From: Candidatus Woesebacteria bacterium
GTDB taxonomy: Bacteria > Patescibacteriota > Microgenomatia > UBA8517
Direction: 5' to 3'
Assembly: GCA_013426185.1 (NCBI GenBank)
Contig: CP058602.1
Location: forward strand, 138,231 to 202,230
DNA: 64,000 nt
In this document: positions 3,625-42,449 of the stretch, in pieces
How positions within the stretch are numbered: position 1 is the stretch's first letter
Layout of the letters: each line of letters starts with the position of its first letter
Program-made: the position numbers and the translations under genes
Notes under the pieces: model-generated
What the model was told of the DNA's origin: nothing
What the model saw: the letters and a program-made list of their open reading frames with translations, nothing else
The model's database searches: none

Positions 3625-4305
3625 TTACAATAGTTTTAGTGCTTCTTGAGCTGCTTTCTGTTCAGCTTCGGATTTGCTTTTTCCTGATCCTTCGGCTATA
3701 TATTTGCCGTTAACTGCTACTCTTACTACAAATGTTTTTTGATGATCGGGACCTGATTCTTTGACTACATTGTATTTTGGCGCTGGCAGTCCTTTTGATT
3801 GGACTTTTTCCTGAAGCCTGCTTTTAGCGTCTTTCAACGGCTGCCTGATCATGTCCTGGGTCTTGGAAAGTATATTTGTTTTGATAAATTCTTCAGCTTT
3901 TTCTAGGCCTTGGTCAATAAACAAAGCTCCTATAATTGCTTCAACGGTGTCTGCCAAAAGCGAAGGATTTTCCCTGCCCCCTGTTTCTTCTTCTCCTTTT
4001 GATAAAAAAAGTTCTTTTCCAAGACCAAGATCTCTTGCTGTCTGGGAAAGGCTTACGGTATTGACCAAATTGGCGCGGAGAGAGGTAAGAAAACCTTCTT
4101 TTTTATTTGGGAATTGAAGAAAAAGTTCTTTTGAAACTATAAATTCTAAAATTGCGTCTCCTAAAAATTCCAATCTTTCGTTGTTATCTCTTATTCCAGG
4201 ATGTTCGTTAACCCAGGAGCGGTGAGTAAGGGCCTCTTCAATAATTTTGGGGTTGTTGAAGCTTCTTTTTAAATTTTGAAAATCTTGGGAATTATTCATT
4301 GTCAA
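3625..4305 (-). CDS. rnc: Ribonuclease III
   Basis: ERLEFLGDAILEF RNase III signature, plus a C-terminal dsRBD (GSGKSKSEAEQKAAQEAL). Confidence 0.85.
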   Translation of the reverse strand: MTMNNSQDFQNLKRSFNNPKIIEEALTHRSWVNEHPGIRDNNERLEFLGDAILEFIVSKELFLQFPNKKEGFLTSLRANLVNTVSLSQTARDLGLGKELFLSKGEEETGGRENPSLLADTVEAIIGALFIDQGLEKAEEFIKTNILSKTQDMIRQPLKDAKSRLQEKVQSKGLPAPKYNVVKESGPDHQKTFVVRVAVNGKYIAEGSGKSKSEAEQKAAQEALKLL

Positions 4306-19278: not shown

Positions 19279-19335
19279 AATCCCGATCTGGCAAGCTAAA
19301 CCACTTCCGAAGTGGGCTGAGTTGCCATATCGGGA
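19279..19335. repeat. Direct repeat E1: a remnant of the copZ 3' end (…NPDLAS*) plus downstream imperfect palindrome. E2 is its partner.
   Basis: ATCCCGATCTGGCAAGCTAAACCACTTCCGAAGTGGGCTGAGTTGCCATATCGGGAT. Inner palindrome CCACTTCCGAAGTGG; outer arms ATCCCGAT/ATCGGGAT. Confidence 0.7.
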
Positions 19336-19347
19336 TATTTAAGTCCA

Positions 19348-19569
19348 CTACCTTTTCAAGTTAAAAATTATAGAAAGAATAATTGTTAAGATGATGCTTA
19401 TGATTATTGAAGTTGTAATGGGTGCGTAGAAGATAAAATTTTCTTTTTTAATGAATATGTCACCAGGTAATTTCCCAAAATATGGTATTTTGCTAGAAAA
19501 TAGAATAAAAATACCGAAGGCGACTACTATTAGACCTAAAAGGATAATTAATTTACCCAAATCTTGCAT
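19348..19569 (-). CDS. DUF2905 family small membrane protein
   Basis: GKLPGDI motif flanked by two TM helices. It is co-oriented immediately downstream of copA. Confidence 0.5.
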   Translation of the reverse strand: MQDLGKLIILLGLIVVAFGIFILFSSKIPYFGKLPGDIFIKKENFIFYAPITTSIIISIILTIILSIIFNLKR

Positions 19570-19593
19570 ACCTAGATATTATAAATTTTAGCT

Positions 19594-21861
19594 TCAATGG
19601 GAATCAAATTGTATTCGCTCTCTTTTTAATCGCAGTGAATTGCCTACGACAGAAATTGAACTTGCAGCCATCGCAAAGGCGGCCAAAGCAGGGTTAAGAA
19701 GAAGGTGAAAAGAAGGATAAAGGATTCCCATTGCAACAGGAATTAGAGAAACATTATAACCAAATGCCCAAAAGAGATTTTGTTTTATAACAGAAAGAGT
19801 TTTTCGACTTAGATTGTAGGCCGTCAAGATAGATTTAATATCTTTGTTGAGTAAGGTGATTCCTGCTGATTCAATTGCAACATCAGTTCCTGATCCAATC
19901 GCAATTCCGATATCTGCTGTTGCTAAAGAAGGAGCATCATTTACTCCATCTCCGACAAAGGCCACCACTTGTGTTTTTTCTTTTTTCAGCTCTTTTACTT
20001 TGTTTGCTTTTTCTTCCGGCAAAACATCAGCTAGTACATTCTCTATGCCCGATAACTTTGCTATTGCCTTTGCGGTTCTTTCGTTGTCGCCTGTTATCAT
20101 CCAAATCTCAATACCCTCTCTCTTCAAGTTTTGCACAGTTTCTTTTACCCCACCTTTAAGAGTGTCGGAAATTGTAATTATACCCAGAAGATTTTTGCTT
20201 TGGGATAGAAACACCACGGTTTTTCCTTCGTATTCCAACTTTTTGATACTTTCTTCCCATTTATCGAGATTGACCCTATTTATTCCCATTAAAGCTCTAT
20301 TACCCAAAAAATATATCTTTCCTTCTATTTTTCCTTCAATTCCCTTCCCGGCGTGAGAGGTAAAGTTTTTTACTGCGGCAAGTTTTAGTCTATTACTTTT
20401 TGCCTTTTTGAGTATTGCATCAGCAAGCGAATGTTCGGATCCTTTTTCAAGAGAGGCTGCGATTTTAAGTACTTCCTCCTTGCTTATTTTTTGATTCTTG
20501 TTTTCAATGATATCAACTACTTTGGGTCTGCCTTGAGTTAGGGTGCCGGTTTTATCAAAAATAAAAATCTTTGCTTTGCTTAAAATCTCAAGGCTCTGAG
20601 CGTCTTTAATTAAAATGCCTGATTCTGCTCCCTTGCCGACACCTACCATAATAGCGGTTGGTGTGGCAAGACCCATCGCGCAAGGGCAAGCGATGATAAG
20701 AACGGCTATCATGTTACTCAAGGCTAAGTTGAAATTGCCAAAGTCGTACCACACAACAAAGGTTAAAACCGCAAGGACAAGGACAATGGGCACAAAATAT
20801 GAAGACACGATATCTGCAATTCTTTGGATGGGCGCTCTTGTTGCCTGAGCCTCTGAAACAAGTTTTATGATGTTTGAAAGCATTGTTTCTTTACCAACTT
20901 TCTCTGCTTTAAAGATAAAGGTCCCTGTTTTATTGATGGTTCCGCCAATTACTTTGTCTTTTACTTTTTTGTCAACAGGTATTGACTCTCCTGTTATCAT
21001 TGATTCATCAACACTGCTTGCTCCTTCAACAATCTCACCGTCTACAGGGATTTTTTCACCTGGCCTGACGCGGATAAAATCGCCAACTTTTACGTTGTCA
21101 ATTGAAATGTCAAACTCCTTGAAATTACCTCTTTTGATATCTGATATGGTTAGCTTGTCCCCCGTTCTTACAGTTTGCAACACTCTTGCAGTTTTTGCCT
21201 TGAGTCCTAGTAATTTTTTAATAGCATCGGAAGTATGAGCTTTAGCTTTTGCCTCAAGAAGTCGGCCCAACAGGATAAGAGCAATGATAACAGTTGCTGT
21301 GTCAAAGTATAAATGTCCCCCTTTAAAAGTTGAAATTAAAGAATAACCCCAGGCACTAGATGTGCCAATTGCAATTAAGGTATCCATGCTTGCAGTTCTA
21401 TTTTTGAGTCCTGACAATGTAGCCTGATAAAAACTCTTTCCTGCCCAGAACTGTACAGGGGTAGAAAGTAGTAAAAGAGTAAAAGGATTACTCAAAAATT
21501 GAGGAACAAAATTGAACCATTCTGGAAAACTCCCAAGTACTACAAAAATTGATACAACTATGGAGAAAATAGTCTTTATTTTGAGATTTTCAAGCTCCCT
21601 TTTCTTTTCTTCTTCTTTAATCTTGTTGATATCTTTTTCTTCGTCTGTTTTGATTATGGCTTTGTACCCTGCTTCTTCTACAGCGTTTGCTAAATCTTGA
21701 TCTTTAACATTCAGACTGCATTCAACCACTGCCTCCTCGCTTCCGTAGTTCACAGAAGCGGTTTTGACACCTTCTATTTTTTGCAATTTTCTTTCAATCA
21801 GCTTGGCGCAGGAGGCACAGTGCATTCCAATAATTGGGAAAGAAGTCCTTTTTATTTGCAT
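19594..21861 (-). CDS. copA: Copper-translocating P1B-type ATPase
   Basis: N-terminal HMA domain ([14 protein letters not shown]), a CPC metal-binding TM motif ([11 protein letters not shown]), DKTGTLT phosphorylation site and GDGVNDAP. Confidence 0.85.
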
Positions 21862-21960
21862 CTTATTTTCAAATTTTTTCTTTCTCGCTAAAGAAAAACC
21901 ATATTACAAAGATAATAGCAATAGTGCCCAAGAGCGTAACCAATATTTTGTCTGAAGTAA

Positions 21961-22272
21961 TCATCTGGTTGATTTTCTAAAGACTGCTTTTATCTCTTTT
22001 ATTAATTTGTTTTCATCTATCTTTCCCTTTTTGGCAGGATCAATCACACAGCTTTTAATATGATTTTCAAGTATTATCTCGTCTACTTTTTTAAGTGCAG
22101 ATTGTATGGCTTGAGATTGATTAATAACGTCAATGCAATAAGCATCTTCTTCAACCATTTTTATAACTTTTTCAATGTGACCGCGAGTTATTTTTAGACG
22201 GTGAATTATTTTGCTTTTGGTTGGTTCTTTGCTGTAAAGGCGTGTGTTCATACTAAAATTACCTGTTGACAT
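21961..22272 (-). CDS. csoR: CsoR/RcnR-family metal-sensing transcriptional repressor (DUF156)
   Basis: RGHIEKVIKMVEEDAYCIDVINQSQAIQSALKKV...HIKSCV matches the CsoR helix-bundle signature, with conserved Cys/His. It is upstream of copA in the same orientation. Confidence 0.65.
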   Translation of the reverse strand: MSTGNFSMNTRLYSKEPTKSKIIHRLKITRGHIEKVIKMVEEDAYCIDVINQSQAIQSALKKVDEIILENHIKSCVIDPAKKGKIDENKLIKEIKAVFRKSTR

Positions 22273-22295
22273 CCCCTGTATGGGGATGTATAAAT
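22266..22295 (+). promoter_or_regulatory. Divergent promoter with a CsoR-type operator: TTGACA, 17-nt spacer, TATAAA, with the palindrome ACATCCCC-TGTAT-GGGGATGT inside the spacer
   Basis: Read directly. The C4-N5-G4 inverted repeat is the CsoR operator architecture. A minus-strand TTGACA-17-TTTAAT promoter for csoR-copA lies a few bp away. Confidence 0.5.
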
Positions 22296-22351
22296 TAAAC
22301 TACTTAGATTGTTTATTGTCAAGTGCTTTTATCTTTTAATATACTCTAATT

Positions 22352-23347
22352 ATGAACACAGTCTTTCTCGCCTTCTTTACTGGTTTAACTACAGGTGGCG
22401 TTTCTTGTTTTGCTGTCCAGGGTGGCCTTTTAGCAAGTTCAATTGCCAACCAAAAAGAAGGCGAAAGAAGTAAAGCAGTTTTTCTTTTCCTTTTCTCACG
22501 ACTTTTTGCTTACTTTGTTTTAGGAGCTCTTCTTGGATTTTTGGGTTCATCAATTGCCATTTCTCCTAAAGTTCAGGGATTAATGCAAATTTTTGCCGGC
22601 GTTATAATGCTTTTGACCGCTTTTCGTCTTTTTGATTTACATCCTGTTTTCAGGCGTTTTGTTATTACCCCTCCGAAGAGTGTTTTTAAGGTTCTGAGGA
22701 TAAAAAGCCGTGAAGAAGGACTTTTTTCAGCTTTGTTTTTGGGGTTATTAACTGTTTTAATACCTTGCGGTGTCACTCAGGCAATGATGCTTCTTTCGGT
22801 TGCTTCTGGTTCCTGGGTCTATGGTGGTTTGATTCTTTTCTCTTTTATTTTGGGGACCACTCCCTTATTTTTGTTTTTGGGTGGTGTCTCAGGAAAACTT
22901 TTTGAAGTCAAAAGTTTCAGATTCGTTGCTGCTTTTGTTATTTTAATTTTGGGAGTTTTGTCAATTAATACAGGGCAGATGCTTCGCGGTTCGATCCATA
23001 CGCTTCAAAATTATTGGCTAGCTGCAACGGGTCGCCTTGAGCAAAATGGTAGAGGTAAGATTGCGGAGTTTAATAAGAACGGTATTCAAGAAGTTGAAGT
23101 AAAGGTAACAACCTCGGGTTATTATCCCAGCGCTACTTCCCTTAAAGTGGGTGTGCCGGTTCGTCTTAAATTAAACTCTCAAAATGCACAGGGTTGTATC
23201 AGAGCTTTTACCATTCCTGAATATGGTATCTCTCAAGTTTTGCCTGCTAGTGGCGAGACAGTTATTGAATTTACTCCTACTAAAAAGGGTAAGCTCGCTT
23301 TTACCTGCAGTATGGGTATGTATGGTGGTTATTTTGATGTTTTCTAA
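22352..23347 (+). CDS. Polytopic membrane protein (DsbD/CcdA- or TauE-like, with Cys in two TM helices) fused to a C-terminal cupredoxin-like domain; putative copper-handling protein
   Basis: About 8 TM helices with GGVSCFAVQGG and LIPCGVTQAMM. The C-terminal soluble region (VPVRLKLNSQNAQGCIRAFTIPEYGI...FTCSMGMYGGYFDV) resembles a Cys/Met-rich copper-binding beta-sandwich. It is divergent from csoR and upstream of copZ. Confidence 0.4.
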   Translation: MNTVFLAFFTGLTTGGVSCFAVQGGLLASSIANQKEGERSKAVFLFLFSRLFAYFVLGALLGFLGSSIAISPKVQGLMQIFAGVIMLLTAFRLFDLHPVFRRFVITPPKSVFKVLRIKSREEGLFSALFLGLLTVLIPCGVTQAMMLLSVASGSWVYGGLILFSFILGTTPLFLFLGGVSGKLFEVKSFRFVAAFVILILGVLSINTGQMLRGSIHTLQNYWLAATGRLEQNGRGKIAEFNKNGIQEVEVKVTTSGYYPSATSLKVGVPVRLKLNSQNAQGCIRAFTIPEYGISQVLPASGETVIEFTPTKKGKLAFTCSMGMYGGYFDVF

Positions 23348-23350
23348 TTT

Positions 23351-23575
23351 ATGGCAAAAAAGATTTACAAAGTAGAAGGAATGAATTGCGATGCCTGCGC
23401 CAAGATGATTGAGCTTGATTTGGAGGATGAAGGTGTTGTGGCAATGTGCGATTATGCTAAATCTTCTTTAGAAATTGAGATTGAAGACAAGAAAACTGAG
23501 GATAAGGTAAAAGAAGTTCTTAGAAAGGGTGGATACTTGTTGGTAGAGGAGACCAATCCCGATGTGGCAAGCTAA
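23351..23575 (+). CDS. copZ: Heavy-metal-associated (HMA) domain copper chaperone
   Basis: MNCDACAKMIE MxCxxC motif; 74 aa. Confidence 0.75.
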   Translation: MAKKIYKVEGMNCDACAKMIELDLEDEGVVAMCDYAKSSLEIEIEDKKTEDKVKEVLRKGGYLLVEETNPDVAS

Positions 23576-23611
23576 GCTACTTCCGAAGTTGACTGTGTAG
23601 CCAATTGGGAT
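23556..23611. repeat. Direct repeat E2: the genuine copZ 3' end plus the same downstream element, about 80% identical to E1
   Basis: ATCCCGATGTGGCAAGCTAAGCTACTTCCGAAGTTGACTGTGTAGCCAATTGGGAT, in the same orientation as E1. Confidence 0.7.
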
Positions 23612-23638
23612 TTTGATTTTGGAAATTTGAAGAGATTG

Positions 23639-23681
23639 TGGACGGTAAGGGACTCGAACCCCTGACCTTTCGCACGTCATC
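23639..23681 (-). other. Orphan tRNA 3' fragment (T-arm plus acceptor 3' strand ...GGTCAGGGGTTCGAGTCCCTTACCGTCCA)
   Basis: It has a T-stem/T-loop and the acceptor 3' strand ACCGTCC, but no D or anticodon arm. The acceptor is complementary to the 5' fragment at 24029-24051. Confidence 0.5.
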
Positions 23682-23698
23682 CCGATTTTAATTTGGTG

Positions 23699-23772
23699 TG
23701 GATCCAGTAGGACTCGAACCTACGACCTCTTACACGTCAAGTAAGCGCTCTAGCCAGCTGAGCTATGGATCC
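23699..23772 (-). tRNA. tRNA-Val (GAC)
   Basis: Cloverleaf GGATCCA/TGGATCC. Anticodon loop TTGACGT; T-loop TTCGAGT. Confidence 0.85.
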
Positions 23773-24012
23773 ATCATTTATTAACTTTTTGAGGTGTTTA
23801 GGATTTTTATATTTTTTCAGACGCTTTTCAAGCACTATTGCCTCTTTTTTAGTTTCTACACCTATGTTACATATCATTTTCCAAGGAACACCTCTTCTTG
23901 TCCATCTTTGTTTGCCTTTGTTATGGTTCAACAGTCTTTTAACCAAATCCTTAGTATAACCTATATATAATTTGTTTAATTTGATGCTTTCTAAAATATA
24001 GACAAAATACAT
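23737..24012 (-). CDS. GIY-YIG nuclease family small protein. The real C-terminus is probably shorter; the ORF track reads through into tRNA-Val.
   Basis: N-terminus MYFVYILESIKLNKLYIGYTKDLVKRLLNHN contains the GIY..YIG motifs and a catalytic R/N pattern. Confidence 0.55.
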   Translation of the reverse strand: MYFVYILESIKLNKLYIGYTKDLVKRLLNHNKGKQRWTRRGVPWKMICNIGVETKKEAIVLEKRLKKYKNPKHLKKLINDGSIAQLARALT

Positions 24013-24028
24013 TTTATATTAATCGGGA

Positions 24029-24051
24029 CTAACCAACTGAGCTAACCGTCC
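24029..24051 (-). other. Orphan tRNA 5' fragment (acceptor 5' strand plus D-arm start GGACGGTTAGCTCAGTTGGTTAG)
   Basis: Canonical 5' tRNA sequence that stops inside the D-loop. Its acceptor GGACGGT pairs with the ACCGTCC of the 3' fragment at 23639-23681. Confidence 0.5.
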
Positions 24052-24114
24052 CCATTTGATAGCAAAGTGCTTTTGTTTAGGTATTTTAGATTAAATTTGT
24101 ATCAACTTCAATAT

Positions 24115-24714
24115 TTAACCTGCAGATCTTGTTAGGTAATGATCGGCTGAAAGGAGAAAGCTTGAGCCGTGTTTTTTGTATCTGTTCCAGTATTTCATTC
24201 TTGTTCTTTTGCTTGTTGCCTCAAGCCAGATTGAAGCTTTTTCTATTTCAAGTCTTGCAGTTCTTATAATTTTTAGAACCTGTTCAAAGAAAAACAGATG
24301 ATATGTGCCGGGATTTTGTGGCGCTTGTTCCGGTATAGCCTTTATTTCTTCTCTTATATTTTGGGTGGATTTTGATAGAAGTTTTACTTCTTTTATGATT
24401 GCATCAAGCTCGGCTCTTAGCTGTCCTATCTTTTTTTCCACTTCTTTCTTTTCTTCTGTGAACACAGAAAGTTCGTGCCATCGGCTTGTTACTTCTACTC
24501 TTTTGGTTTCTGTTTTTATTCCTGATTTGGATATTTCTATTGATTCCCCGGGTCTAAATTCTTGTTTTTGTGGGTATTCACTTTTGACACCAACAATTTC
24601 TTGAAGGATGCTTAAAGGATCAATATTACTTGCCAAAGAAGACATTAACCCCACCTGTTCATTTAGGTTTTCTATTTGCTTTGCTCTCTGGCTTTTTTTT
24701 GTGGAATTTGCCAT
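24115..24714 (-). CDS. Hypothetical coiled-coil protein
   Basis: 199-aa ORF downstream of trigger factor with a central heptad-rich segment. No recognisable motif. Confidence 0.3.
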   Translation of the reverse strand: MANSTKKSQRAKQIENLNEQVGLMSSLASNIDPLSILQEIVGVKSEYPQKQEFRPGESIEISKSGIKTETKRVEVTSRWHELSVFTEEKKEVEKKIGQLRAELDAIIKEVKLLSKSTQNIREEIKAIPEQAPQNPGTYHLFFFEQVLKIIRTARLEIEKASIWLEATSKRTRMKYWNRYKKHGSSFLLSADHYLTRSAG

Positions 24715-24738
24715 TGGTTTTGGCAGGCTTTTTTAATT

Positions 24739-25632
24739 TTATAACAAAGAAGTCAAAAATTCCAATGCCTTCCTTCTTAAGAGTATGTTTTTGATGGCTT
24801 CTCTTTGCTCTTGACTATTTTCTTGGCCATCTTGACTATTTAACGAAGCTGACATCTTCAAGACTTCATCTAATTCTTTTTTATCTACCTCTAGCTTTTC
24901 ATCAAGAGCTATTTTGTTGAGTATAAGTTCTAAAGCTAGAGATTGTTTTGTTTGGTTTTCGTATTCTTCTCTTAAGCTTTCTGCTGTTTTTCCAGTTGAT
25001 TCAAGATATTTTTCAAGACTTAAGCCCAATTTCTCTATTCTTTCCAAAAGTTGCGAAAGTCTATGATTTACTTCCTCTTCTACCAAAAGAGTTGGGACAT
25101 CTACTTTAATAATTTTCATTAGAGCCTCGATGACTTTTTGCTCTTTTTCCTCTTGTGTTGGTTTTTGGCCGTCTCCCCCCTTTTTATCAGGTGTCCAAAT
25201 TTCGGTGGTCTTTAGTTCTTTTCTAATTTCTTCTTTATAGTTGCCTAACTTGACTTCAGGCATTTCACAGGTAGTTACTCTTACCTGCCAGTTTTCTCCC
25301 TCTTTGGCTGACAGGAGCTCAAATCTTGGATAGATAACAGGTTTAATATTCTCTTCTTGTAGTGCTTCACGTAGAGCTGGCAAGACAATATGAGTTAGAA
25401 TTTCTTCGATTATTTTTTCTGGTTTGACATTTTCTTTTACCTTTGCAATTGGGGCTTTGCCTTTCCTAAAACCTGGTACTTCCAGATTTTGACCCAATTC
25501 TTTTAAGATATGCTCTTCGTTTTGAGCAATAATCTGGGCGGGTATGGTAAAGGTTATTTGGACCGTTTTGTCTTCTGTTCTCGCGACGGTTCTTGTAATT
25601 TTTTCTTCTTTATTTTCTTTCTTTTTAGTCAT
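24739..25632 (-). CDS. tig: Trigger factor (domain-reduced, no PPIase domain)
   Basis: N-domain signature GFRKGKAPIAKV (GFRxGxxP) followed by a long helical chaperone C-domain. At 297 aa it is too short to include an FKBP domain. Confidence 0.6.
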   Translation of the reverse strand: MTKKKENKEEKITRTVARTEDKTVQITFTIPAQIIAQNEEHILKELGQNLEVPGFRKGKAPIAKVKENVKPEKIIEEILTHIVLPALREALQEENIKPVIYPRFELLSAKEGENWQVRVTTCEMPEVKLGNYKEEIRKELKTTEIWTPDKKGGDGQKPTQEEKEQKVIEALMKIIKVDVPTLLVEEEVNHRLSQLLERIEKLGLSLEKYLESTGKTAESLREEYENQTKQSLALELILNKIALDEKLEVDKKELDEVLKMSASLNSQDGQENSQEQREAIKNILLRRKALEFLTSLL

Positions 25633-34943: not shown

Positions 34944-35456
34944 TTATTTAACAAAATATCTTTGTTGATTTTTGGGCCCCTTTCTTATCATTGGCCTTTG
35001 ATTACCTTTTTCAAACTCTTGGTAAAATCTTTTCATTGGTCCTTTTTTCGACCAAATTTCATTGATTCCACTTTTGTCGATTACCCAAGCTGAAAATATA
35101 ATTGAGAGAATAAAAATTAAAATTATTACAAGAAAGTTCTTTCGATAGGAGAAATCATATCTTTTAAGAAGTAATACTCCAAGACAAACCATCAATATAG
35201 CAAGAAAAGGAAGCCACCAGGGGAAAATTTGTATTGCCATCTCTATTCTTCCAAATCCAGGTCCATTTTTTCTAATTAGGAAGAAAATAAAATTTGTCAA
35301 AAACATTGCGCTTATACTTGATCCTATTAGCCCAATAGTGGCAAAAAGAGAACCTGCAACAAAGTACCATTTTGGCCTCATTTTTATTTGCCCCTTTTTT
35401 ATCATGGTAACAACTTTTTTTTCAAGATTTTTTTTGTTTTTTATTTTTTTTGACAT
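34944..35456 (-). CDS. Membrane protein, putative anti-sigma factor partner of the upstream ECF sigma
   Basis: Its start overlaps the sigma gene stop by 16 nt. Lys-rich cytoplasmic N-terminus followed by 4 TM helices. Confidence 0.3.
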   Translation of the reverse strand: MSKKIKNKKNLEKKVVTMIKKGQIKMRPKWYFVAGSLFATIGLIGSSISAMFLTNFIFFLIRKNGPGFGRIEMAIQIFPWWLPFLAILMVCLGVLLLKRYDFSYRKNFLVIILIFILSIIFSAWVIDKSGINEIWSKKGPMKRFYQEFEKGNQRPMIRKGPKNQQRYFVK

Positions 35457-35983
35457 ATTTTTTTCATTAAGATTTTAGCACGTCTTATTCTGGTGCCGAT
35501 TGTTGCGACAGGAACCCTTAAAATATCACTTATCTCCTCATAGGATTTTTCTTCAAGATAGTAAAGGGTTATAACTTCTCTATAGTCAACAGGCATCTGT
35601 TTTAGGCAACGGTGAGTTTTTAGTCTCAATTCCTTTTTAATTAGTCCTTCCTCTATATCTATGCCACTGTCAAAATCTAAATTATTTTCAAGCGATATTT
35701 GTTTCTTGTCTTTTTTGATCATATTTATAGTTTCGTTGTGAGCTATGCGATAAATCCAGCTTGAAAATTTTTTGCTTCTATTAAAACCCCTAAGATTAAT
35801 ATAAGCTTTGATAAAGGTTTCCTGTAAAATATCTTCGGTTTTATTATCATCCTGAATCAGGTTAAAAATGTATCTTCTTAATTTATCCTGATAACGTCTA
35901 ATTATTTCAGTGTATATTTCTTTGTTTTTTTCACAGACAAGTCTAACAACTTCTTCATCTTTTAGATTTTTATAAATTTCCAT
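35441..35983 (-). CDS. ECF-subfamily RNA polymerase sigma-70 factor
   Basis: Region 2 (FIKAYINLRGFNRSKKFSSWIYRIAHNETINMIKK) and region 4 HTH (SYEEISDILRVPVATIGTRIRRAKILMKK). Confidence 0.75.
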   Translation of the reverse strand: MEIYKNLKDEEVVRLVCEKNKEIYTEIIRRYQDKLRRYIFNLIQDDNKTEDILQETFIKAYINLRGFNRSKKFSSWIYRIAHNETINMIKKDKKQISLENNLDFDSGIDIEEGLIKKELRLKTHRCLKQMPVDYREVITLYYLEEKSYEEISDILRVPVATIGTRIRRAKILMKKICQKK

Positions 35984-36061
35984 ATCATAATTCTAACAAT
36001 GTATTTGCAAATACCCAATCCCCGACTGGTTAGTCGGGGAATTGGTCTATGGGTTTTGAAA

Positions 36062-36442
36062 TTATTTGTTCCAACCTCTAGCAAAACCCATTTTTATTCC
36101 CGAGCCGTTTTGAAGGCCAAGTCCTAATTCTTGACGAATTTTATTGGCTTCTTCAGTTTTGCCTTCAAGCATAAGCTTGTGCATTTCAGCAAATCGGCTA
36201 AAGTTTTGCTCATTTATTACCTGAGTAGCTCTTCCCCTTCCTTGCATAAGGTTTTTCCAAGCATTGTAATCTTTGTTTTCAAAAGCCTTGGTCATAGCCT
36301 CATGCCTTTCAGGAGAGTAATTAGGACCTTTTACGTTGGGGTCTCCCCTGTAAGCTAAGGTTTTTTGAGCAGTTGTAAAAAATAAGCCTGCTCCCAAAAC
36401 TAAAGCTAGAATTGCTAATATTTTTTTATTCATTTTTCTCAC
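36062..36442 (-). CDS. Small secreted protein of unknown function
   Basis: Signal peptide (MNKKILAILALVLGAGLFFTTAQKTLA), then a 100-aa soluble domain. Confidence 0.3.
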   Translation of the reverse strand: MRKMNKKILAILALVLGAGLFFTTAQKTLAYRGDPNVKGPNYSPERHEAMTKAFENKDYNAWKNLMQGRGRATQVINEQNFSRFAEMHKLMLEGKTEEANKIRQELGLGLQNGSGIKMGFARGWNK

Positions 36443-41650: not shown

Positions 41651-41694
41651 AAGATGAACTGGAAGTGCAGGCTTTATTCTTTACAAACTTTATG

Positions 41695-41768
41695 TCGGGG
41701 TGGACGGACTCGAACCGTCGACCTCACGCTCCCAAAGCGCGCACTCTAGCCAACTGAGCTACACCCCG
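41695..41768 (-). tRNA. tRNA-Pro (TGG)
   Basis: Acceptor CGGGGTG/CACCCCG; anticodon loop TTTGGGA; T-loop TTCGAGT. Confidence 0.85.
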
Positions 41769-41861
41769 TTCTTCAGAGAAGAACTACTTTCTCCAGAGAA
41801 GAACTACTCTCTCCAGAGGAGAATGATTTTCTCCAAGAGATAATTTCTCTCCTCAGCGATT

Positions 41862-42125
41862 TTATTTTAATTGATTTTGGTATTTTAATATCAATCTTCG
41901 AAACTTATAACCAAACCCTGATTTCAAAAACTTTTCTCTTTTCTCAGCGCACAGCTTACAACAGAACCTTTCGTCATATATCAACTTCCAAGGTATATAA
42001 GCTTTTGTATATCGAGATAGCCCTTTGTTGTGTTCTTTTATCCTTACCTCGAGATCCTTAATCGTCAACCCGACATATGTTTTGCCCTTTTTTCTCAAGC
42101 TCTCGAGTATGTAAACACTATACAT
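41862..42125 (-). CDS. GIY-YIG nuclease family small protein (second copy)
   Basis: N-terminus MYSVYILESLRKKGKTYVGLTIKDLEVRIKEHN contains the GIY..YVG motifs. Confidence 0.55.
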   Translation of the reverse strand: MYSVYILESLRKKGKTYVGLTIKDLEVRIKEHNKGLSRYTKAYIPWKLIYDERFCCKLCAEKREKFLKSGFGYKFRRLILKYQNQLK

Positions 42126-42172
42126 TCGACAATTTCAATTCTTGCCTAGCAGAAAATTCTGCTCTGCAGAAG

Positions 42173-42256
42173 TGCCGAGAGAGGGACTCGAACCCTCACG
42201 GTCCTTCGGACCACAGGATTTTAAGTCCTGCGTGTATACCATTCCACCATCTCGGC
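42173..42256 (-). tRNA. tRNA-Leu (TAA), type II
   Basis: Acceptor GCCGAGA/TCTCGGC; anticodon loop CTTAAAA; variable arm TGGTCCGAAGGACCGTG; T-loop TTCGAGT. Confidence 0.85.
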
Positions 42257-42349
42257 CTGAAATCTAACTTATTTTAAAACAGCTTTATTCCTGCTTCGCA
42301 GGAAAGGATTTGTCGCTTCGCTCTTGCTCACTTTCACTTACGTTCGCAC

Positions 42350-42449
42350 AAGTCCTGCGTGTATACCATTCCACCATCTCGGCCTGAAATCTAACTTATT
42401 TTAAAACAGCTTTATTCCTGCTTCGCAGGAAAGGATTTGTCGCTTCGCT
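42350..42449 (-). repeat. Tandem direct duplication (about 100 bp, near-identical) of the tRNA-Leu(TAA) 5' 34 nt plus 66 bp of upstream sequence. The original is at 42223-42322.
   Basis: Two copies of CAAGTCCTGCGTGTATACCATTCCACCATCTCGGCCTGAAATCTAACTTATTTTAAAACAGCTTTATTCCTGCTTCGCAGGAAAGGATTTGTCGCTTCGCT separated by 27 bp. Confidence 0.8.

Follow-up and report, generated by a model that had tools for sequence, protein, structure and literature searches.

A GIY-YIG nuclease cassette with its own tRNA-Val(GAC) inside the native tRNA-Val(GAC) gene of a Woesebacteria bacterium

In the 64,000-nt stretch of DNA analysed here (the window; Candidatus Woesebacteria bacterium, contig CP058602.1, positions 138,231 to 202,230), the native tRNA-Val(GAC) gene is present as two separated remnants, and between them lies a cassette that contains an open reading frame (ORF) for a small GIY-YIG nuclease and a second, complete tRNA-Val(GAC). 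Coordinates are those of the window and the locus is read on the minus strand (Table 1). An earlier interpretation made without database searches, here called the sequence-only reading, had placed two tRNA fragments on either side of this insert, with exactly complementary acceptor strands GGACGGT and ACCGTCC, and had derived them from one gene. Both fragments lie where it put them and their acceptor strands are exact complements. Together they match, at 64 of 64 nt, the uninterrupted tRNA-Val(GAC) found at the same locus of two other contigs, L092 and L091, which confirms a single parent gene; a match of this extent to one tRNA gene is far beyond chance. Neither half was called by ARAGORN on the window, and the two halves are identified by their agreement with the uninterrupted gene of L092 and L091.

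The 5ˊ remnant reads GGACGGT-TA-GCTC-AGTTGGTTA-G and comprises the acceptor 5ˊ strand, the D-stem 5ˊ strand, the D-loop and the first base of the D-stem 3ˊ strand. The 3ˊ remnant, TGACGT-GCGAA-AGGTC-AGGGG-TTCGAGT-CCCTT-ACCGTCC-A, begins with the anticodon loop from U33, including GAC, and continues through the anticodon-stem 3ˊ strand, the variable loop, the T-arm and the acceptor 3ˊ strand to A73. Alignment of alleles with and without the cassette shows that 10 nt are missing between the remnants, AGCGTTCGCT, which cover most of the D-stem 3ˊ strand, nt 26, the anticodon-stem 5ˊ strand and nt 32. The sequence-only reading had described the loss of the D-stem 3ˊ half and of the anticodon arm; the loss is confined to these 10 nt and does not take the whole anticodon arm, the anticodon loop with its GAC being retained. 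It also overlooked that the gene that was broken and the complete tRNA inside the insert belong to one isoacceptor. The promoter-like site upstream of the native gene keeps its sequence in L092, and from its position it would drive the 5ˊ remnant, the ORF and the cassette tRNA as a single transcript.

Table 1. Features of the interrupted tRNA-Val(GAC) locus, of related elements in the window, and of units inside larger RNA genes (rows that name another locus give positions in that locus)
Feature	Coordinates	Strand	Remarks
Promoter-like site TTGAAG, 17 nt, TAAAAT	24111..24083	-	Consensus scan; ~32 nt upstream of native tRNA-Val 5ˊ end
5ˊ remnant, native tRNA-Val(GAC) nt 1-23	24051..24029	-	GGACGGTTAGCTCAGTTGGTTAG; identical to L092 1742-1764 and to L091
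Inserted cassette, 349 nt, in place of AGCGTTCGCT	24028..23680	-	Filled versus empty alignment
Left terminal inverted repeat TCCCGAT	24028..24022	-	9 nt before ORF start
GIY-YIG ORF	24012..23737	-	Pfam PF01541, 61.7 bits, E 8.5e-17, profile positions 1-76 of 78
Cassette-borne tRNA-Val(GAC)	23772..23698	-	ARAGORN; Rfam tRNA 68.7 bits
Right terminal inverted repeat ATCGGGA	23686..23680	-	11 nt after cassette tRNA
3ˊ remnant, native tRNA-Val(GAC) nt 33-73	23679..23639	-	TGACGTGCGAAAGGTCAGGGGTTCGAGTCCCTTACCGTCCA; identical to L092 and L091
E2 hairpin ATCCCGAT ... ATTGGGAT	23555..23612		27 nt beyond 3ˊ remnant; overlaps last codons of CopZ-like ORF
E1 hairpin ATCCCGAT ... ATCGGGAT	19280..19336		60 nt from tRNA-Ala(GGC); cassette 7-mer termini; free energy -30.8 kcal/mol, z -6.2
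Second GIY-YIG ORF, 87 aa	42125..41862	-	tblastn E 1e-10 to first ORF
rRNA-gene unit, L024 (16S, helix 6 region)	3955-4264		Hairpin tip
rRNA-gene unit, L045 (23S)	3972-4269		Hairpin tip
rRNA-gene unit, L063 (23S)	3963-4275		Hairpin tip
RNase P RNA unit, ~305 nt, L017	3974-4281		CPR/Saccharibacteria
RNase P RNA unit, ~305 nt, L057	2973-3277		CPR/Saccharibacteria
RNase P RNA unit, ~305 nt, L060	3969-4273		CPR/Saccharibacteria

The natural strains provide both filled and empty alleles of this site. L092, a contig of another sample, is 100% identical to the window over ~1 kb of tig (the trigger-factor gene), and at the corresponding position, between the same flanking sequences, it reads GGACGGTTAGCTCAGTTGGTTAG-AGCGTTCGCT-TGACGTGCGAAAGGTCAGGGGTTCGAGTCCCTTACCGTCCA without interruption, continuing as TGACG...ACCGTCCA after AGCGTTCGCT; alignment of this empty allele with the window fixes the cassette ends to the base. 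The more distant relative L091, with a neighbour gene of 62% identity and without the copper block that adjoins the locus in the window, has an identical intact tRNA-Val. The filled allele does not contain AGCGTTCGCT anywhere, and in the outgroup L091 the gene is intact; the empty state is therefore ancestral, and the window represents an insertion. The proposal of the sequence-only reading that something had inserted within one tRNA gene is thereby borne out by an allele pair with base-precise ends. The filled allele was recovered in at least 10 independent assemblies (Logan, ENA and JGI), so it is not an assembly artefact. Filled alleles came, among others, from SRR35774032, SRR6186653 and Ga0272448, and the empty allele from SRR29635775. 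Among strains ordered by how closely their neighbouring DUF5660 gene matches, the distribution of the cassette is patchy: strains at 100, 99, 91 and 78% identity have it, and those at 94 and 62% do not.

The insert had been put at about 345 bp, with a GIY-YIG ORF, a complete tRNA-Val(GAC) and inverted TCCCGAT and ATCGGGA motifs at the junctions; it measures 349 nt, it contains both genes, and the two motifs are its very ends. The right repeat is altered to ATCGAGA in L087. In the predicted fold of the whole unit (24053..23636), the acceptor strands of the remnants pair, the inverted repeats pair within a 9-bp helix, and the T-arm of the remnant is kept. The ORF has 80 codons of its own (24012..23773) followed by 11 codons taken from the cassette tRNA: it lacks its own stop, enters the tRNA for 36 nt and ends at a TGA formed by U33-G34-A35 of the anticodon loop. 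The closest solved structure to its product is that of the UPF0213 protein BH0048 (1zg2_A, E 1.1e-5, residues 2-70); 1ywl_A is a further match (E 0.023), and SLX1 is among the nearest structures. The protein is a complete GIY-YIG catalytic domain only, and it has the single-domain build and the size (about 80-100 aa) of UPF0213/YhbQ-like proteins. The cassette tRNA is identical to the native tRNA-Val at 52 of 74 positions; the 22 differences include four of the five bases of the deleted anticodon-stem strand, and others that compensate each other within the acceptor, anticodon and T stems. An exact 41-mer of the cassette tRNA was scanned against the JGI metagenome collection and occurred inside the cassette only, in five contigs of the same species and in one copy without the ORF (L097, see below); no lineage carrying this tRNA as its native gene was found in that scan.

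Two diverged copies show how the parts of the cassette have fared over a longer time. The 808-nt contig L086, which belongs to a more diverged lineage, shares the architecture of the window locus, junction positions included. Its ORF is 72% identical to that of the window at the nucleotide level, and the ratio of nonsynonymous to synonymous substitution (dN/dS) between them is 0.11 at a dS of ~1.9, which indicates purifying selection on the ORF protein. The cassette tRNA of L086 is identical to that of the window at 75 of 75 positions, while its 3ˊ remnant has a broken T-stem (AGGGA/CGCTT) and an altered T-loop. Its left junction carries a full hairpin, TCCCGA-TTCG-TCGGGA, followed by TGAC, where the window has the left arm only, and a 10-nt direct repeat, TCGGGATGAC, is present at both junctions (101-120 and 459-468). 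In L097, which has L086-like upstream sequence, the ORF is lost; a shortened 5ˊ remnant and the cassette tRNA (with one substitution) are kept, and the 3ˊ remnant has a 33-nt insertion in its T-loop. This is the stage of degeneration expected of a selfish nuclease gene. The acceptor complementarity of the remnants is kept in both L086 and L097. Since the cassette tRNA is invariant and the remnants decay, the cargo copy would be the working tRNA-Val(GAC) of the filled strains and the halves would be debris; the D stem and the anticodon stem have each lost a strand, so the folded remnants cannot yield a tRNA. A separate rearrangement was observed in L097 downstream of the ORF-less cassette (~790-870), in which a fragment comprising nt 1-35 of tRNA-Ala is followed by 13 nt and a full tRNA-Ala(GGC), a replaced tRNA with no nuclease gene nearby.

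The ORF belongs to a family that is found largely with structured RNAs. A scan of the GTDB species representatives with the ORF gave a set of 80 loci at 35-50% identity; the genome of the window is itself absent from the representatives for this gene, the best match there being 45% identical. They come mostly from the candidate phyla radiation (CPR) and Bacteroidota and also from Verrucomicrobiota, Planctomycetota, Cloacimonadota and Proteobacteria. In 51 of the 80 loci the ORF lies in or beside a structured-RNA gene, whether for a tRNA, a transfer-messenger RNA (tmRNA), an rRNA or RNase P RNA. A tRNA is found within 600 nt of the ORF in 35 loci; in almost all of them it shares the strand of the ORF, and in many it directly adjoins or overlaps the end of the ORF. 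A tmRNA gene stands just upstream (150-350 nt) in nine loci from several phyla (L016, L018, L021, L025, L030, L033, L065, L070 and L082), and several of these ORFs group together in the ORF tree. Three loci have the ORF inside an rRNA gene, in non-CPR bacteria (Planctomycetota and Cloacimonadota), where it occupies the loop of a 13-18-bp closing helix. In another three it lies inside the RNase P RNA gene at the P3 position, enclosed by 14-18-bp inverted repeats (CCCCGCAC...) directly before the conserved AGGAAAGTCCG (P4) motif, and the Rfam RNaseP_bact_a matches (54-77 bits) begin at the 3ˊ arm of the unit. Partial tRNA copies of at least 15 nt outside tRNA genes accompany 22 of 39 tRNAs near an ORF and none of eight distant tRNAs (Fisher p 0.0045); the commonest layout in the relatives is a 5ˊ tRNA part, the ORF, an intact tRNA and sometimes a 3ˊ part, which mirrors the window. 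One locus (L013) has two tandem copies of a unit of tRNA-Asp nt 1-39, hairpin and ORF before the intact tRNA. In a rough neighbour-joining tree without support values the ORF clades track the target RNA and not the host phylum, and one tmRNA clade spans Planctomycetota, Bacteroidota and Cloacimonadota; since the proteins are short and the tree lacks support values, this correspondence is suggestive only.

Hairpins are a second recurrent component of these loci. GC-rich hairpins occur at or near the breaks of the disrupted tRNA copies in the relatives, in D, anticodon or T loops, and a recurrent stem, T-CCCG(A)...(T)CGGG-A, has the sequence of the terminal repeats of the window cassette and of the stems of two further hairpins in the window, E1 and E2. 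The strict form of this hairpin, TCCCG..CGGGA, shows a 12-fold enrichment in the neighbourhood of the ORFs (0.284 versus 0.024 per kb) and is concentrated in the clade of the window ORF (8 of 12 loci versus 5 of 68, p 1.7e-5). The Gln/Ala clade has CCCGCCCG... hairpins, and in the rRNA/RNase P clade 13-18-bp inverted repeats of the type CCC(C)GCAC... enclose the ORF, with the same core in different host RNAs. Nuclease clade and repeat type thus go together, suggesting a cognate pair; no Rfam family matched the junction hairpins of eight relatives. E1 and E2 are related 57-nt hairpins (49 nt at 86% identity) that bracket the copper block, each adjoining a tRNA gene, and by blastn-short over all fetched loci they occur only at the two ends of the copper block. 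The sequence-only reading had the cassette motif terminate both of them, which holds for the two arms of E1 and only in part for E2, whose second arm is degenerate (ATTGGGAT). TCCCGAT occurs nine times in the window against 3.7 expected, and five of the nine fall within 19281-24028. E1 and E2 may be ORF-less relics of the same element family; E2 is independent of the cassette, as it is present, in shortened form, in the empty allele L092. Elsewhere in the window, a perfect GC hairpin, CCCCGACTGGTTAGTCGGGG, lies at 36021-36038 between ORFs at 35441-35983 (-) and 36062-36442 (-), with flanks that extend the palindrome; it is probably a terminator, but one with a stem like those of the hairpin family.

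A second GIY-YIG ORF in the window is also associated with tRNA genes. It is situated between tRNA-Leu(TAA) (42172-42256, -) and tRNA-Pro(TGG) (41694-41768, -), and in the relative L102 (AP024680.1) these two tRNA genes are only 9 nt apart, so this ORF too is polymorphic for presence and absence. Upstream of the intact tRNA-Leu there is a tandem duplication containing the tRNA-Leu leader (42384-42420), nt 1-34 of tRNA-Leu (42350-42383, -) and a 27-nt filler (42323-42349). The break falls in the anticodon loop, and the duplication is present in the window and in L100 and absent from L099 of the same species; it is therefore polymorphic as well. In the gap from the second ORF to tRNA-Pro (41770-41870, -) short tandem repeats with ctcttggagaaa / ctctggagagagtagttctt-like units were observed.

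We propose, as the reading we consider fairly probable, that a selfish cassette of the homing type, carrying a rescue copy of its own target, invaded the native tRNA-Val(GAC) gene. By removing 10 nt the insertion killed the native gene, and because the cassette tRNA now supplies the decoding, the host can dispense with the cassette only if a donor provides the intact gene. In the proposed sequence of events, the native tRNA promoter would transcribe the unit; the nuclease would break cassette-free tRNA-Val alleles by cutting the native tRNA gene, to which the cassette tRNA would itself be resistant; and the break would be repaired by homology from a cassette-bearing copy, the conserved tRNA ends serving as homology arms. 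Nuclease and rescue tRNA would in this way be copied into the target, a natural form of 'home-and-rescue'. Homing-endonuclease-like invasion by the GIY-YIG gene was already one of the two origins offered by the sequence-only reading, and it is supported here by the allele pair and by the link of the family to structured-RNA genes.

Several observations weigh against this proposal. Cleavage by the ORF protein and its specificity are deduced from sequence. No separate DNA-binding domain was found within the 80 own codons of the ORF, a search of PHROGs with the ORF gave zero matches and hence no detectable link to the Seg enzymes, and the NCBIfam model TIGR01453 (group I intron endonuclease) scored 25.5 bits against a cutoff of 56. 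With a protein that has no DNA-binding domain and resembles UPF0213 and Slx1 rather than Seg or I-TevI, the recognition of a specific tRNA gene is left unexplained. The remnants of most relatives match the neighbouring intact tRNA at 100% identity, which gives no sign of a cleavage-resistant rescue copy in those loci. Clade-specific hairpins and terminal repeats are foreign to classical homing and may reflect another mechanism. In 100-nt identity profiles the window is mosaic relative to L089, L087 and L092 throughout the 7 kb, and these profiles do not set the cassette apart as a co-conversion tract. Finally, our view covers 64 kb of the genome, and a second native tRNA-Val(GAC) gene may be present elsewhere.

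Other explanations place the origin of the structure outside homing. The sequence-only reading had also offered a decayed attachment site of an integrase-borne island, the island being the copper-resistance block (19594-23575; CopA, CsoR-like, DsbD-cupredoxin and CopZ-like genes). tRNA genes are classic integration sites, and the block does sit between tRNA-Val and tRNA-Ala and is absent from L091, where a 359-aa ORF takes its place; in L001 and L092 an extra ~3.4 kb is found in its middle, with rhodanese, cupredoxin and DUF1573-like genes. L092, however, has both the copper block and an intact tRNA-Val, which refutes this origin, and since the empty allele carries the island too, the island was not involved in the insertion. 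No integrase gene was found among the neighbouring ORFs, so that the copper block appears as a variable island without integrase, and the tRNA fragments are complementary and non-overlapping instead of duplicated, with no direct repeat of the tRNA 3ˊ end; we give an attachment site virtually no chance. Scarcely more credible is a functional interrupted tRNA, whose halves are rejoined as RNA by splicing or held together as a split tRNA by the acceptor stem and the repeat helix. The predicted fold, with its paired acceptor strands and repeats and its intact T-arm, and the acceptor complementarity retained in L086 and L097 would suit it, but with the 10 absent nt both the D stem and the anticodon stem lose a strand, the T-arm has decayed in L086 and received 33 nt in L097, and an intact isoacceptor is available inside the insert. 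A long-intron tRNA, the case that the sequence-only reading had named as contradicting it, is excluded by the absent 10 nt and the lack of a detected intron ribozyme: in 22500-25500, at E values up to 10, Rfam models matched only the intact tRNA and noise, with neither a group I nor a group II intron among them. A tri-split tRNA with the missing 10 nt encoded elsewhere was dropped, the empty allele showing a simple replacement, and an archaeal-type split tRNA or one with a bulge-helix-bulge intron was rejected because positions 24-32 are missing from the halves and the remnants decay in L086 and L097.

A more serious rival, although in our judgement an unlikely one, is a hairpin- or terminal-repeat-directed micro-transposon, in which a structure-specific Slx1-like nuclease would recognise its own TCCCGA...TCGGGA, cut the element ends and insert the element at the loops of DNA hairpins extruded by structured-RNA genes, with no homing through the cutting of an empty allele. 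Slx1 is a eukaryotic structure-specific nuclease, and the appearance of SLX1 among the nearest structures fits this mechanism, as do the 7-bp terminal inverted repeats of the cassette, the solo hairpins E1 and E2 with the same termini, the enrichment of hairpins near the ORFs and their concentration in one ORF clade, the cognate repeats of other clades with the same core in different host RNAs, and the location of breakpoints and hairpins in D, anticodon and T loops. Of the hallmarks of a transposon or miniature inverted-repeat transposable element, the cassette has the inverted repeats, but the window shows a 10-nt deletion in place of a target-site duplication; in L086 a 10-nt direct repeat is present at the two junctions. 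Each ORF lineage, moreover, is found at one kind of target rather than scattered within a genome, the tRNA-Val junction is the same in the diverged L086 and L097, as homing predicts, and the ORF lies outside the hairpin in many loci; to our knowledge, GIY-YIG transposases have not been established in bacteria. We hold it to be less probable still that the cassette is a passive allele, spread by ordinary homologous recombination or transformation, with a GIY-YIG gene that has a host function or none; it would persist because the foreign tRNA-Val is neutral or useful, for instance in escaping a tRNA-targeting toxin. The high mosaicism of the locus between strains does imply frequent recombination, and UPF0213-type proteins are also encoded by ordinary chromosomal genes, yhbQ of Escherichia coli being one. 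That tRNA-cleaving defences can be countered by phage tRNAs (PMC13096335) also speaks for a passive allele. Such an allele leaves unexplained why 51 of 80 loci lie in or beside structured-RNA genes of unrelated phyla, why partial tRNA copies accompany them and why clades track targets; against it, too, stands the purifying selection that acts on the ORF in its linkage with the cassette.

Homing with rescue concerns the tRNA-Val cassette itself. For the family as a whole we tentatively suggest, as a possibility in some doubt, a cross-phylum class of ~300-nt units that combine a single-domain UPF0213/Slx1-like GIY-YIG nuclease with a cognate hairpin or terminal inverted repeat and that colonise structured-RNA genes (tRNA, tmRNA, 16S and 23S rRNA, and RNase P RNA). 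Such units would be tolerated at the hairpin tips of large RNAs; in tRNAs they would kill the gene and persist through a carried or duplicated replacement, as a natural 'home-and-rescue' drive, and they would find their targets by DNA structure or by the cognate repeat instead of a DNA-binding domain. UPF0213/YhbQ and Slx1-like proteins (1zg2, 1ywl; SLX1) are the best sequence match to the ORF and share its size and single-domain build. We know of no assigned bacterial role for UPF0213/YhbQ proteins and of none described in a cassette that invades tRNA genes; the cassette suggests a biological role for part of this uncharacterised family. The locus is in addition a bacterial example of a mobile element that physically splits a tRNA gene, and it explains one source of the partial tRNA genes that confuse annotation. 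At 349 nt, and with natural filled and empty alleles, the cassette is small enough for synthesis and direct testing. A full-text literature search, in which absence is not proof, did not find a description of a chromosomal tRNA-gene cassette with a heterologous replacement of the same isoacceptor, of the remnant and hairpin architecture or TCCCG..CGGGA hairpins, or of RNase P RNA or tmRNA as hosts of GIY-YIG units.

Among described systems, the nearest relative in behaviour would be SegB of phage T4. SegB of phages T4 and T6 is a free-standing GIY-YIG homing endonuclease encoded in a tRNA gene cluster; it cleaves within tRNA genes, where it recognises a conserved T-loop motif, and through its action segB and the neighbouring tRNA genes are inherited at a rate near 100%, at the cost of recipient markers (PMC2330249). 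Tandem repeats of tRNA and segB arise by way of microhomology that the 5ˊ end of the tRNA shares with the 3ˊ end of the ORF (PMC13096335). The likeness lies in a GIY-YIG gene among or next to tRNA genes, to which the overlap of ORF and tRNA in the window and the tandem units of L013 may be compared, and the second ORF of the window, between two tRNA genes, has a SegB-like free-standing layout. SegB, in contrast, is a phage protein with a DNA-binding part whose gene stands between genes, whereas the window ORF is a chromosomal gene of the CPR that encodes an 80-aa catalytic domain, and its cassette is bounded by inverted repeats, sits inside the target tRNA, destroys it and carries a heterologous replacement of the same isoacceptor.

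GIY-YIG insertions have been described in rRNA genes of the CPR, mostly at the tops or bases of rRNA stem-loops and belonging to neither group I nor group II introns; the word 'tRNA' occurs nowhere in the text of that study, which judged the GIY-YIG to lie outside homing (PMC11270868). Host group and nuclease superfamily are the same as in the window, the 16S and 23S relatives reported here share the closing-helix layout, and our loci extend these insertions to tRNA, tmRNA and RNase P RNA genes. An insertion at a hairpin tip is tolerable, however, whereas the tRNA of the window is inactivated and replaced: like an intervening sequence, the cassette has complementary arms that form a closing helix, but its host RNA is incomplete by the 10 deleted nt. 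In Archaea, a tRNA gene is disrupted by a 1.8-kb recombinase element and the products are functional through splicing (PMC3293823). There too a mobile insertion breaks a tRNA gene, leaves a 5ˊ fragment and is heterogeneous in a natural population; in the present case the host is a bacterium, the insert is a nuclease cassette of 349 nt, no tRNA can be rebuilt from the halves, and the function comes from the cargo tRNA.

Homing endonuclease genes usually spare their host, residing in self-splicing introns, in inteins or at intergenic sites. The cassette appears to be a third solution, in which the target gene is destroyed and a sequence-diverged working copy is brought along, so that the host is made dependent on it. 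The same logic underlies synthetic cleave-and-rescue and home-and-rescue drives, which are engineered, RNA-guided and deployed in sexual eukaryotes, and which set a nuclease against an essential gene while supplying a diverged rescue copy; the tRNA-Val(GAC) cassette would resemble these drives, as judged from its anatomy alone.

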